The notes under the pieces: model-generated
What the model saw: only the letters and a program-made list of their open reading frames with translations
What the model was told of the DNA's origin: nothing
The model's database searches: none
Part shown: piece by piece, positions 5,610 through 64,000 of the stretch
How the letters are laid out: each line of letters starts with the position of its first letter
Numbering within the stretch: the stretch's first letter is position 1
Translations under genes and position numbers: made by a program
NCBI GenBank assembly: GCA_964016885.1
Contig: OZ024753.1
Coordinates: forward strand, 36,332,001 to 36,396,000
Source: Eledone cirrhosa
Lineage: Eukaryota
Direction of reading: 5' to 3'
DNA length: 64,000 nt

Positions 5610-5810
5610 GATGCGAGAAAAACCACAAACCCTCCATCTCAATTCTACTTTTGAAAAGCACAAGAACCGCGAAACCGGTAAAGGAACCAAATAAATATAT
5701 TAAAAAAAAAAGACCCCAGTTTCATTTTCGATTTTATCTTTTTTCCTTATACTTTCACTCGTGTAGGACACCTCGTTTTTTTCATTTTGTAAAAAAACCT
5801 CACTTTCTAA
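5610..5810 (+). mobile_element. Short element family B (HHR-bearing), between (AG)n and (TA)n
   Basis: Near-identical to 9677-9890. Confidence 0.75.
5648..5683 (+). ncRNA. Minimal type I hammerhead, U3:A8 core, weakened stem II
   Basis: ctt-TTGAAAA-gcacaagaaccgc-GAAA-ccgg-TA-aag. Confidence 0.55.
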
Positions 5811-6114
5811 TATATTATATATAACCTGATTAGTTCTTTCGTTGTTTTTGGTATTGTATGGTTGGGTTTTGCCTACCGCAATTTTCAATTTGTCAAGCTT
5901 TTAAACGTAATGTTATTACTCTAAGGACCTACCCTTATTGAGTGCTTTGCTACTCATTTCTTATTGTAGGTCGGCTTTGCTTGGCCACAGCCAAAGCTTC
6001 GATTTTACTAAGCTTCCACTTGTATATCTATATATATATATCTAAAGTACCAGTAGAGCGCCCGTGATGTTTGCTCAACTCGTGTGTTACACCTCTATTC
6101 TTTTAAATATATAT

Positions 6115-6307
6115 AACGGAGGAAATGTGGTAAGGAACCAGGTGGACCATAACGCACCAAAGTACTCAATACTTAGGGTAGTAGAGTGGGTAATAGGAAC
6201 GAGTAGGACCCCGACGGCTGAGCTCAAGCCGTTTCGACGGCTAATTCAGTCCAGAATTAGCCGTCGAAACGGCTTGAGCTCAGCCGTCGGGGTCCTACTC
6301 GTTCCTA
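6115..6307. mobile_element. Family A element with fold-back inversion
   Basis: ~6193-6246 and ~6255-6307 are inverted copies of the HHR 3' half; (TA)n on both sides. Confidence 0.8.
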
Positions 6308-6325
6308 TATATATATATATATATA

Positions 6326-6483
6326 TATTGTTATGCTTTGGGAGGGTCATGTTGCCAATAAGAAACTCACGCACCAGTTGCTTTCACTCCAATTTATTAT
6401 AAATTAAATTTATAAATATAAATTTAAGAATTTATAAATTTCCGGTTGGTTGGCAACAATTACCCTCCCAAAGCATAACAATA
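6326..6483. mobile_element. Short fold-back / MITE-like element with ~30-bp imperfect terminal inverted repeats
   Basis: TATTGTTATGCTTTGGGAGGGT...ACCCTCCCAAAGCATAACAATA. Confidence 0.6.
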
Positions 6484-6783
6484 TCGGTTTCAACACACGT
6501 TTTCAGATAAAGAATCTTGCTAAACAAATTCAGAAAAGAAATATTAACGACGGCCTATGCCTCCGTTAATTTATCGTGATATTTCGCTCCTAGTAACAGC
6601 CTTTCCTATCTCTGTTTGGTTGAGCACACTTCTCTGAGTGGCTTTGGGCTGCCCTTTCTAGCAGTTCGTCTCTCAGAGGCCACTGGTTCACTGCCCTTAA
6701 ACACGCTGTGACTTCTCTCTCCCACGTGTAGCTGGACAGTCAATTGTAAAATTCTCTTAGTGTTGTCTGAAATGTATGGCCTT

Positions 6784-59216: not shown

Positions 59217-60154
59217 CACACACACACACATATATATATATATATATACATATGTCGTGCACAGGTCAGCATTTTTAGCTAGTCTCATTATGTGAGAGTA
59301 TATTGTGTGTATATTACTCCATTATGCCTACAAACTGTAAACATACACGCGACACTTGACCGTATGTGTCGATCACGTGTCGGTCTCTATGACGTCGCGA
59401 TCACGTGCACATCAACTCTCGAAGTAGCTCTTCAGAGGTTTTCTCTGACTTCCTGTGCAGAATGAATTTGTTAAGTGGATAAACAGATTTCATTTCATAC
59501 ATATATTTATTTCAGTGTGTGCGTCTCTTGCATCTGTGTAGTATATGTTAATATATATATATAAATAAGTGGTAGAAATTACTGACCTTCCTGTTTATAG
59601 TTGTTTATACTATATACATAACTATAAATAGTATTATTATTATATGTACATATAATGTATATATAATGTATATATATATATAGGCATATATATATATATA
59701 TATATATATATATATATAGGCATATATATATATATATATATATATATATATATATATATACATATAGGCATATATATATATATATATATATATATATATA
59801 TATATATACATATAGGCATATATATATATATATATATATATATATATATATATATACATATAGGCATATATATATATATATATATATATATATATATATA
59901 TATATATATATATATATATATATATATATATATATACATATAGGCATATATATATATATATATATATATATATATATATATATATAGGCATATATATATA
60001 TATATATATATATATATATAGGCATATATATATATATATATATATATATATATATAGGCATATATATATATATATATATATATAGGCATATATATATATA
60101 TATATATATATATATATATATATATATATATATATATATATATATAGGCATATA

Positions 60155-61258
60155 TAACTTTGATAACTTTGATAGGTTTCGGCCATGTCTAACTTAATAG
60201 CACCACCTGGCGAAGTCCTACAAATCAGTGTTTGGGCACCATGGCCCACTCGAGCAGAGAGTTATTGTTTAGGAGGCTTATCCGGGATTTCTTGAAGGAA
60301 TTTATCCTAAGTCTTCTTCAACTTGATGGGGTCTGTCTCTGCTTTGATGTGTCTTGGTGTAATGTTAAAGAGTGCAGGGCCAATTGAGGTGAAATAATTG
60401 TGCCGTATTGTTGTTATGTGATGCGAGTGAGATTTTTGTCGTGGGCGGATAGCACGGGGCCCAAGCCTTGGGTGTACACTAAAGGTGATGCCAACATCAT
60501 TTGGGCAAAGCTGATGGAATATTTTCCACATAATACAGATAATGTAGCGCTCACGGCGACGTTGGAGAGAATAAAGTTTGAGCTTTTCTAATCGACTCCA
60601 ATAGTCAAGGCCTGTCATGTCATCTATCTTTTTTGTAATTGACCTTTGGGGTGCTTCAACTTTCATAATACTTTGTTTCGTGTGGGGTGACCACAGTGGA
60701 CAACAGTATTCAAGGTGGGGTCGGGCAAAAGTGGAGAAGAGAAGGGTAACAGTGTGGATATCTCTCGACTGGAAAGTTCTAAGAATCCAGGAACACATTC
60801 TGCGGGCCATATCAACTTTGCTGTTTATATGAGTGGCCCAGCTTATGTTGTAGTCCACAATTACTCCCAGGTCTCTGATGTTATTGGATGCCACTAGAGT
60901 TTCACCCGAAGGGAGAGAGTATGGTAGTTTCATGTCATCCTTTTTTTCCAAAATGGATTAATTCAAATTTATCCTCATTCAACAGCATATTATTCATTTC
61001 TGCCCATTGGATAACAGCCAGTAGGTCTGACTGACGGCAAGTCCGGTCACCCACCTCACTGATGACCCTTTGGAGCTTGGAATCATCTGCGAAGATTCTG
61101 ATGTTGCTGTGCGTGATGATGTCAGTAATGTCATTAATGTAGATGATGAAAAGAGGTGGGCCCAACACAGTGCCTCGTGGGACGCCACTGCTGACTTTGG
61201 CAGGGCTTGATTTTACTCCTTCGACTACAACATGCTGGGTCCTGCCTGTCAGGAAACA
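60155..61258 (-). mobile_element. 5'-truncated CR1-clade LINE (RT C-half, 3'UTR, tandem tail), frameshifted
   Basis: [72 protein letters not shown]; frameshift near 60945; tail (TATCAAAGT)n. Confidence 0.9.
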
Positions 61259-61780
61259 TTTATATATATATGTTTATTTATAAATATATATATGTATATA
61301 TATATATATGTTTATGTATATATATATATATGTTTATATATATATATATATATATATATATATATATATATATATATATATATATAGAAGTTCTATTTAA
61401 ATTGTTGGGATACAACAAGCAAATATTTTTATAACTGATATAAAGCACTCAAAAAATAATTGGAGTAAAAATACGATATTAACAAATGGAAACTATAATA
61501 TTTATAAAACCATATTTATTTTATTATACTGTTTGGTATATTATATTTGGTATATTATATTTGGTATATTATATTTGCTTTGGTGTCCTTGAAATATGTA
61601 TAATGAAATAAATATGGTTTTATAAATATAATTTCCATTTGTTAATATCGTATATATATATATATATATATATATATATATATATAGAGAGAGAGAGAGA
61701 GAGATATGTAGGCATATATGCATATATATATGTAAAGAAAAAAATTTGAAAATGTAATTGAAATCTTTTAAACATATTTA

Positions 61781-61824
61781 TTTACTATACCGGTTTCACA
61801 GTTCTCATGATTATCAAAAGTAAA
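61781..61824 (-). ncRNA. Divergent family B hammerhead, U3:A8 core
   Basis: Minus strand: tttactt-TTGATAA-tcatgagaactgt-GAAA-ccgg-TA-tagtaaa, then ATAAA. Confidence 0.6.
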
Positions 61825-64000
61825 ATGGCGATGGAGGGTTTGTGTTTCTGTTGTAGACTGTTTCATATATATATATATATATATATATATATATATATAT
61901 ATATATATATATATATATATATATATATAGGGAGTGTAACTTGGAGTTACTGCAGGTTCACCCGGGTGAGCACTCGATGTTTAGGTTCACTAACTTTACC
62001 ATATAACATGTATTCATTTTCCCCTAGCATTTTAAATAGTCCGTCGAGCTGCCGATTATAGAGTCGGGTAAGATCGATACAGATCAAACCTTGAGCTGAT
62101 CAGTGGCGAAACACGCGTCACCGACCAATAAATGTAATGAAGGAGTAACCAATCGTCCTTGTTATCCTTTCAATACACACACACGTGTGTGTGTGTGTGT
62201 GTGTGTGTGTGTGTGTGTGTGTGTGTGTGTGTGTGTGTGTGTGTGTGATAAGTTATCGTTTTAGGTAATCCAGCTAGAGGTTGTGAGTACTCTGTACTAT
62301 GGATAGTTTTAACGTACGGCGTTAAAATTTCGAGTGATCAACTGTAAATAAAACCCTTTTTGTACAGCCGACCATGTTATTCTTCACTCTTTCACTATAT
62401 ATATATGTATGTGTGTGGTGTGTGTGTGTGTGTGTGTGTGTGTGCGTGTGCGTGAGTGTGTGTGTGTGTATATACTCGTATAGTATACATATAAATCGGT
62501 ATTTTTACGTTTCTCTTAACACATTAAATAGTTCAAGCTAACATTGTTGTTATATTTTAACAGACAATACCAGAAACACACTCTCACACAAAAGAAGTGA
62601 ATAACGAAAGACATGGTATATAACAGAGGATACAACGTAAGCAAACAAAAGCCTGTGAGATCTGGCAAGTAGTTGAGGGAAGTGTATCTACTCGAACAAA
62701 AATATATCAAGAGCCTGGCCCTCAAGCAATTGCCTTACCCCTGAAACTAACCCTAGTTTGTCACTCGTATTGCTAGAATAACACACGTCCTTTTTTTTTT
62801 GTCCTCTTCAGAAGTAATTTTTCTTTTCTTGTTCATCTATCTATATGTCTGTCTGTCTGTCTTATCTATCTATCTATCTATCTATCTATCTATCTATCTA
62901 TATGCCCCCCCCCCCCTCCCTCTCTATCTATCTATCTATCTTTATTTTATTGCAGAAATGGCTTCTACGTGACTAGAACTGTTTCATTCGTAACGAATGC
63001 TAGTGATTTCTTACGAATGAAACAATTCTAGTCCTGTAAATTATGATAGAAATTCGGTAAATTCTTAGAACACCCCCTTGATTTTATATATTTCTTTGGT
63101 TTGTTTGAGACCTATCAATTAATCTCATCTCTGACTATGCTGCAAAGGATTTTTCTCCGGAAAATGGAAGAGAGTGCAGATCCTCAGACTTTTCCCCTCC
63201 CATGAAGTTTTCTATAAAAAAAAAAATTTTTTTTTTTTTCATGGGATTCCCTAAACCTAACCCTAACTTAAGACTTCTGTTTTCCAAAATGGAGTCGGAT
63301 ATTTTTCGAAAAGGGGGCAGCTGCGGTAAAATTTCAACAGTTATGTGGTTGCTCTACATGCTAGAAATAGCAGCAAAATCTTTACGTTTTCTGAAAAAGA
63401 TTCATTGCTCTAGTTTTATGAGACCTTCTTCCAAATGAAGATTTTTTTTCACCGAAAATTAGCCTCAAGCGTCAGTTTTGTTTGTTGTTTACGAAAAATA
63501 AACAGAAGTTAATGCAGTATGTGTGTGCTATTAGACAGACATACATACCCCCCCCCCCTGGATTTTCTATAGCAACCTTTTTCTAGGTGCGTTTATGGCA
63601 GATCAATTTTTTGTGTGGAACTATCAATAGCTGTTTAAGTCATAAGTCCTTCTTCCATCCAGCTTTCTTCATTCAGAATGAATAAGCCGGGGAAGTTTGA
63701 GCTCGAAGAGTATCGAACTTATTCAACAGACTTATGAATAAGAATAGCAAACTTACTGCCTTAACGCTCAAGAACAAACACAGAACAATTGAGCAAGTCA
63801 TCGCAATTATTGAAGAAATTATAACCGAGTGAGCATATTCAGGTTCTGTTGAAGCACCCTGTATATCACCGTTTGTAAAGCCCTTCGAATGACTGAAGCA
63901 ATTCAATAAAACCATCCCGTTTTCCCCCTATAGTAGACATCTGAACTACCCTAAATCGTCACCCTACGTCCTTTTTTCATGATATATTTAAGTTGGGCGA

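Follow-up and report, generated by a model that had tools for sequence, protein, structure and literature searches.

The window analysed in this work is a stretch of 64,000 nucleotides of the Eledone cirrhosa genome (3.0 Gb), positions 36332001-36396000 of contig OZ024753.1, and is rich in (TA)n tracts and other simple repeats. The islands between these tracts contain type I hammerhead ribozyme motifs. Thirteen such sites were named in an earlier sequence-only reading, which counted about 20 hammerheads and assigned them to a dense population of non-coding retroelements (retrozymes). Our analysis confirmed the observation and assigned the 13 sites to 11 families, here called A to K. The interpretation was partly supported: the non-coding retroelement reading is correct for two of the 11 families, F and likely G, but the other nine (A, B, C, D, E, H, I, J, and K) are 3′ pseudo-long terminal repeat (pLTR) ends of Penelope-like elements (PLEs) that encode a reverse transcriptase (RT) and a GIY-YIG endonuclease (EN). 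What the sequence-only reading had offered as an aside, that some motifs may simply be 3′ pLTR stubs of PLEs, is thus the main answer, for 9 of the 11 families and 11 of the 13 named sites.

Hammerhead motifs of the islands

The final type I descriptor required a C3-G8 or U3-A8 core with stems I-III and permitted a short palindromic stem III; it was tuned between runs, after a strict and a looser scan. With this descriptor, 11 perfect-core hammerheads were found in the islands of the window (41.6 kb), compared with 0.04 (maximum 1) when the same sequence was dinucleotide-shuffled 200 times, and four one-mismatch hammerheads compared with 0.7. The strict scan had given 5 type I motifs against 0.05 in shuffled sequence, and the looser scan 15 perfect cores against 1.4. 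This indicates that the motifs are genuine. Eleven of the 13 named sites were recovered by the final descriptor and the one at 9198 by the looser scan alone, while the one at 38421 lacks a proper stem I. About 13 hammerheads are solid, and the number of about 20 is reached only by including decayed copies (5645, 20499, 20608, 33178, 34118, 43000, 58719, and 61817).

The type I core CUGANGA/GAAA/UH with stems I-III is present in the window, the exceptions being D, which carries U4A, and K, which has no stem I. A short palindromic stem III is frequent, a mark of the dimer-type hammerheads of PLEs, and A and B have a compensated U3-A8 core, a variant known in nature (both PMC4209133). In family D, position 4 is A, with U in 79 of 18,271 matches; at 52052, CAGAAGA replaces CUGANGA. 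The U4A change is absent among the variants named in the section of PMC3088659 consulted. Covariation of the stems across copies, whose absence would have counted against the sequence-only reading, was found in J, where stem I has 11 two-sided cells against 4.8 ± 1.6 in shuffles (reached in 0 of 500), relatedness being uncontrolled in this comparison. The J loci were chosen by a pattern omitting stem I, and some of their 5′ strands lie at fold-back junctions. A compensatory U-A/C-G change was also seen in stem II of H.

In a genome sample of 39 segments, each of 10 kb and taken at a round-number position, we found 40 perfect cores in 389,800 bases, compared with 0.33 in 12 shuffles. This is one perfect core per 9.7 kb genome-wide against one per 6 kb in the window; the density of one motif per 3 kb first proposed for the window holds only with the decayed copies. 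Extrapolation gives a genome total of about 2.2-4.2 × 10^5 perfect-core hammerheads. For the axolotl, a section title in the literature gives up to 120,000. Exact matches to the core pattern of each family, a count that gave 0 control matches, number 21,852 for J, 18,271 for D, 13,335 for B, 9,560 for K, 5,757 for I, 4,620 for C, 4,033 for G, and 231 for F genome-wide. At least eight unrelated flanking sequences, four of them multi-copy, had been suspected; all 11 families are in fact multi-copy in the genome.

At the gathering score, Rfam reported no hammerhead in the window, and in a run by E-value the matches listed, 150 out of 663, involved microRNA models that fell on simple repeats and palindromes. 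Minimum free energy folding formed stems I and II jointly at three of nine sites, with z-scores from −2.4 to +0.4, and is a poor test for hammerhead motifs of this kind.

Further variants were noted beside these families. In a subfamily of A (L190:2656-2776 and L320), CUGAGAA replaces UUGAUAA, possibly as an intermediate in a switch from C3-G8 to U3-A8. Family P (20355-20555, minus strand) has a U3-A8 core, with GCAA replacing GAAA in most copies, and a Neptune-like tail. Family O (42930-43060, minus strand) is a classic minimal hammerhead with stem III ACGU, decayed here and intact at other loci, and ends in (CA)n or (TA)n. Hammerhead-like motifs also lie at 34118-34185 (minus strand) and 33178-33230 (plus strand); among the loci examined, the former had no copy and the latter one distant copy.

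Coding and non-coding families

All nine coding families run into RT and EN open reading frames (ORFs), and by their motifs they would fall into three groups: six Hydra-type families (A, C, D, E, H, and J), two Neptune-like families (B and I), and one family of another lineage (K). In the Hydra-type families, RT is followed by a C-terminal GIY-YIG-type endonuclease. RWR and SDKT were found in the ORFs of A, D, and J, YRDDG among the ORFs read, and a CxCX5C linker without CCHH, judged by eye, in A, C, D, and E. Units of the form pLTR-ORF-pLTR were identified for A (3.5 kb, L171) and D (3.3 kb, L173); Hydra elements are generally <3 kb. C lies after RT-EN bodies in L165 and L174, J is linked to its ORF in L426 and L430 and H in L423, and EN sequence lies upstream of E at 12 of 14 other loci as well as in the window copy.

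The ORFs of B (L161) and I (L425) match Pfam RVT_1 and GIY-YIG. They have a CX4CxxC linker (of the CX2-5CxxC type, also present in Nematis) before the C-terminal GIY-YIG domain and, like the Neptune clade, GLKF, DKG (in I), YLDD, and an upstream ORF. Their assignment to this clade is by motif only, and their tails of about 40-65 nt have a different shared motif. In L425:1093-8661, two inverted Neptune-like copies appear to be intact, with an ORF1 of 476 aa and an ORF2 of 775 aa. K (L424) has a YVDD RT and a 4.15 kb tandem unit and would represent a third PLE lineage.

The sequence-only reading had named a Penelope/Naiad RT-GIY-YIG protein as the probable mobiliser. The hammerheads are indeed of the PLE type and tied to RT/GIY-YIG ORFs. 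Naiad elements, however, are defined by an N-terminal EN and the lack of a canonical hammerhead, and since RT precedes EN in all nine ORF-linked families, none of them is Naiad. Nor was a short non-coding tandem unit found in A-E or H-K, which are not retrozymes because they are continuous with coding PLEs.

The Hydra clade, as described in the parts of PMC8557442 consulted, has the same C-terminal GIY-YIG, RW(K/R), DKT, and CxCX5C linker without CCHH, and likewise (TA)n targeting, a 3′ hammerhead, inverted arms, and a one-sided tail. Its sole octopus family there is Hydra-1_Obim of Octopus bimaculoides, which has (TA)n targets and a hammerhead whose sequence is found in none of the families here. 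Here, by contrast, a single window contains six families, whose copies number in the thousands to tens of thousands, the tails are 70-96 nt long instead of 30-40, and U3-A8 (A) and U4A (D) cores occur. Minimal hammerheads in PLE pLTRs are also, according to PMC4209133, mostly single motifs of truncated PLEs with a palindromic stem III and U3-A8, and include opposite-strand pairs 100-700 bp apart; thousands per genome are given there, against about 3 × 10^5 here by extrapolation.

Family F (hammerhead at 6784) is a young, 541-nt, non-coding head-to-tail retrozyme. Its hammerheads, one of type I per unit, recur at a spacing of 541 nt in arrays of up to 4.3 units; the copies are 93-100% alike, the longest ATG frame is 26 aa, and the GC content is 38.8%, below the 45% limit used for retrozymes. 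PLE protein matches were found at 0 of 20 and 3 of 30 F loci, the three being separate insertions. All 26 insertions found at 30 position-ordered loci cross the unit junction and are made of the unit alone, 16 of them with an arm >541 nt. Three contig runs of unknown kind contain many diverged F variants, with the end-to-start junction in two organisms; this attests presence only.

Like F, the metazoan non-LTR retrozymes are non-coding head-to-tail elements with a type I hammerhead per copy, dispersed as monomers to multimers, for which a PLE link has been proposed (PMC7229834; 10.64898/2026.07.22.740005, in the parts consulted). The F unit lies outside the 150-450 nt given in PMC7229834 and within the range of 51-972 of 10.64898/2026.07.22.740005, and its insertions differ in having the two-terminus footprint of PLEs and their hairpins (see below). 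Family G (7120) differs from these retrozymes (PMC7229834) by its multi-kb unit, and is likely an ORF-less, non-coding PLE passenger of 2.3-2.9 kb. A pLTR-body-pLTR unit of 3.1 kb includes a short interspersed element (SINE) and an internal duplication, and the body, common to three loci, lacks any frame >100 aa and did not match any of six PLE proteins.

Ends of the copies and a proposed route of insertion

The proposal that these elements target (TA)n was borne out: at 13 of 15 sites checked, the 3′ side lies ≤180 nt from a (TA)n tract. The copies of each family meet (TA)n at either of two fixed points, which are about 40-65 nt apart in the Neptune-like families, 70-96 in the Hydra-type families, about 85 in F, and 140 in G. 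Among inverted insertions, the two arms ended at opposite termini in all 30 classifiable pairs from A, B, C, D, G, I, and J (50 pairs were examined, of which 20 had an unclassified end), and in 14 of 17 pairs from F.

The tails of the Hydra-type families, F, and G open with a bulged hairpin, RCTC-stem-YY-GAGY. The window contains 12 of these hairpins, compared with 0.58 ± 0.74 (maximum 3) in 200 shuffles. The inner stem pairs at 51 of 60 positions over 20 clusters, against 30.3 ± 3.0 after permutation (0 of 20,000 reached the observed value), and the outer pairs alternate between A-U and G-C. A second hairpin was found behind the long terminus in A, D, and F. Judged by eye, the same hairpin also terminates the coral element Hydra-2_Amil.

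The 5′ ends of short copies pile up 25-33 nt after a TATA-like box in four of seven families: A (41 of 46, ≤24 nt from the anchor), B (13 of 29), I (8 of 29), and J (14 of 32). In this analysis the sample of H was biased and K was left uninterpreted. The pile-up of A lies in stem II, which accounts for the half ribozymes of this family in the window.

Given the family membership, ORF linkage, two termini, opposite arm ends, covarying hairpin, and permuted 541-nt unit, all observed directly, it is very probable that the islands are short 3′-end copies of at least nine coding PLE families in TA microsatellites, together with two non-coding families likely copied by Hydra-type enzymes. In the route we propose, the GIY-YIG domain would nick both strands within (TA)n, and each nick would serve as primer for reverse transcription that begins within the RNA, at either of two positions lying a few bases ahead of a bulged hairpin. 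Head-to-head joining of the resulting pair of cDNAs would then yield the fold-back islands. The start of the RNA in A, B, I, and J would lie 25-33 nt past the TATA box of the pLTR, so that copying from the first junction would run off the 5′ end of the RNA after 60-250 nt, much as in strong-stop synthesis; short islands would for this reason be in excess. Random truncation would be the alternative to such run-off. The hammerhead would simply be carried along in the pLTR, and its predicted cleavage is weak or takes place in a dimer through the palindromic stem III. Because family D was amplified with U4A and half of the ribozyme is missing from most copies of A, insertion is probably independent of the hammerhead. 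Cleavage would reduce the RNA of F to monomers, which would then likely circularise and be copied over more than one full turn; mobilisation of F in trans is suggested by its keeping both hairpins, along with a stable three-stem hammerhead. A broader version, which we hold only tentatively, is that Hydra-type enzymes pick the two starts by the hairpin pair, use both sites of a single RNA to prime the two strands of one TA break, and yield mainly strong-stop-like copies of the front of that RNA; any hairpin-bearing RNA, be it a 541-nt hammerhead circle or a multi-kb non-coding unit, would be written in, leading to about 300,000 hammerheads, a number above the 120,000 of the axolotl.

Several points weigh against this picture. 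The reading of the 5′ pile-ups as starts set by a TATA box relies on general knowledge of promoter spacing; C, D, and G show no clear pile-up; and in A and J, divergence of a subfamily from the reference can mimic a 5′ break. Of the 20 clusters in the hairpin test, about five are spurious, being alternative starts or a reverse complement, and none of these was removed, and the second hairpin is unmatched by the pattern in J and G. The clades were assigned by motifs compared by eye, and Pfam gives no match on the Hydra-type ORFs. G rests on three long loci, and a coding parent of it is possible. In F, units within an array differ by 2-4 bases (six pairs) and units of different arrays by a mean of 7 (131 pairs), differences that fail to separate a circle from a linear multimer, and an arm starts at the cut site in just one of the 26 insertions. 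Because of these last two observations, a circular template for F is likely but unproven; its cleavage, transcript, and circle are predictions from sequence.

Of the other explanations, the strongest is that F, and G with it, spread through linear multimeric transcripts of tandems, without a circle and with the ribozyme incidental. We regard this as a real possibility, though not the favoured one. The non-identical units of one F array are in line with it, as are the tandems formed by autonomous PLEs, the normal insertion of hammerhead mutants in vitro (PMC11167929), and the eight of nine Xenopus retrozyme dimers that stayed uncleaved (10.64898/2026.07.22.740005). Yet F still has long stems I-III around a canonical core, all F insertions are permuted across the junction, and circles have been demonstrated for other animal retrozymes (PMC7229834).

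It is less probable, and in our view unlikely, that the short islands are random 5′ truncations and that the hammerheads of the autonomous families are needed for transposition. The spread-out 5′ ends of C, D, and G would fit, and hammerheads are kept across families with compensatory changes (stem I of J, stem II of H, U3-A8 in A and B), but the sharp pile-ups in A, B, I, and J, the >18,000 D copies with U4A, and K without stem I speak against it.

An origin of most islands as independent non-coding retrozymes, amplified one by one as short units, holds for F and likely G but is very improbable as a general account: short copies far exceed long ones, re-transcription of very short copies is possible in principle, and the best 40 B matches share nearly one fold-back junction, but nine of the 11 families run unbroken into RT and endonuclease ORFs, position-ordered B copies vary in their junction and have 5′ extents of 28-596 nt, and head-to-tail short units are missing from the nine families, save one (TA)n-spaced triplet of A stubs. 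This triplet (G000:C24:6011219-6011777, L002-L004) consists of three head-to-tail 163-nt copies with (TA)n between them, possibly an incipient tandem retrozyme or a local duplication. Two candidates were dropped: B as a fixed palindromic miniature inverted-repeat transposable element (MITE), where the query had selected the junction and position-ordered copies vary, and H as a fixed 147-nt element.

Among the closest published systems is Poseidon PAc, which in vitro cuts and extends both strands in AT-rich DNA, with two internal RT start sites bounding the tail, and whose hammerhead mutants still insert (PMC11167929). Poseidon PAc belongs to another clade and has an AC-rich stem-loop, whereas here a covarying bulged hairpin lies a few bases 3′ of each terminus; the strict use of opposite termini by the two arms is unreported for it in the parts of PMC11167929 consulted. 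In the same way, the tail hairpin is undescribed in those of PMC8557442.

PLE-end hammerheads, truncated single motifs, (TA)n targeting by octopus Hydra, and PLE-derived retrozymes are already published. In the literature searched, outside subscription papers and bioRxiv supplements, we found no octopus or cephalopod hammerhead survey beyond Craig 2021 (PMC8557442); outside subscription papers, there was likewise no report of a stem-loop for Hydra-clade PLEs and none on promoter-defined short copies. A 2026 repeat paper on Octopus vulgaris (PMC13282606) has, in the part consulted, no mention of ribozyme or Hydra. The hairpin, the opposite-end rule, promoter-defined short copies, and a fixed U4A core appear to be unmatched in this literature, and they make PLE initiation testable with the published in vitro system. 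A single genome here provides a natural data set on steps of PLE transposition that are still open, with a candidate cis signal for the start of reverse transcription, the opposite termini, a likely promoter-defined class of short copies, and a successful family with a changed core, D, which argues that cleavage is dispensable. The non-coding passengers that share the hairpin link retrozymes to a named PLE clade, and a portable hairpin that loads RNA onto an RT-endonuclease would serve genome-writing tools.

Feature coordinates and other elements of the window

Hammerhead-bearing and related features of the window (positions count from its first nucleotide; strand "." denotes two-armed or fold-back features)
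Feature	Position	Strand	Details
Family F, part of 541-nt head-to-tail unit	6545..7041	+	Hammerhead 6784-6865, predicted GUA cut after 6858; bulged hairpin 6586-6625
Family G 3′ end	7058..7263	-	Hammerhead 7120-7177
Family A (Hydra-type) 3′ pLTR	8553..8719	-	Complete U3-A8 hammerhead 8565-8658 and inverted tail piece
Family A fold-back stub, 3′ half-hammerhead only	6104..6308	.	Likewise 282-341, 9956-10108, 27621-27805, 45622-45822
Family H (Hydra-type) 3′ end	8744..8890	+	Hammerhead 8812-8867; then tail of another family, hairpin 8948-8981
Family I (Neptune-like) 3′ end	9083..9269	-	Minimal hammerhead about 9198-9236
Family B (Neptune-like) inverted two-arm insertion	9516..9888	.	U3-A8 minimal hammerheads 9588-9625 (-) and 9714-9751 (+); one arm ends at the short terminus, the other at the long
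Family B, other copies	5609-5823, 61775-61847		
Family J (Hydra-type) stub	27849..27979	.	Hammerhead 27853-27905 (-), inverted tail, hairpin 27917-27935
Family K 3′ end	37812..38476	-	Hammerhead core 38430-38463 and stem II, no canonical stem I
Family C (Hydra-type) stub	42556..42826	+	Hammerhead 42719-42784
Family C, other copies	45883-46061, 58677-58963, 61387-61650		Hammerhead 45954-46019 in the first, 58719-58779 (-) in the second
Family E, 5′-truncated Hydra-type PLE	49663..52028	-	Hammerhead 49707-49772, end in (TA)n; RT thumb and CxCX5C linker 51549-52046; GIY-YIG-type domain 51188-51643 in another frame; SINE in 3′ untranslated region (UTR)
Family D (Hydra-type) 3′ pLTR and tail	52029..52215	+	U4A hammerhead 52052-52102, hairpin 52129-52174
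Family D, other pieces	543-638, 20239-20307, 20556-20728, 42862-42926		
Bulged tail hairpins RCTC-stem-YY-GAGY, twelve	11 within 5918-58900, one at 584-628		

Tail-only or end-only pieces of further PLE families lie at 5918-6028 (with a hairpin at 5918), 6329-6532 (a K-related end), and 61930-62100. A SINE-like repeat of 180 nt is very common (3579-4832, 14249-14439, 17486-18279, 47402-47594, and 50933-51158), frequently in inverted clusters, and is nested in PLE 3′ UTRs. A tRNA-like match of 32.7 bits at 59151-59222 (minus strand), in an island between TA tracts, is probably a SINE head. At 60310-61273 (minus strand) there is an RT fragment of long interspersed element (LINE) type in two frames, with an RVT_1 match below the cut-off. 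A 600-nt element, likely a LINE 3′ end, is present in three copies that are 95% alike and have (TATG)n flanks (15469-16064, 32244-32850, and 48242-48842). Finally, an element with terminal inverted repeats lies between TA tracts at 33316-33709 and contains a nested copy of its own end; we take it to resemble a Tc1/mariner-type MITE.

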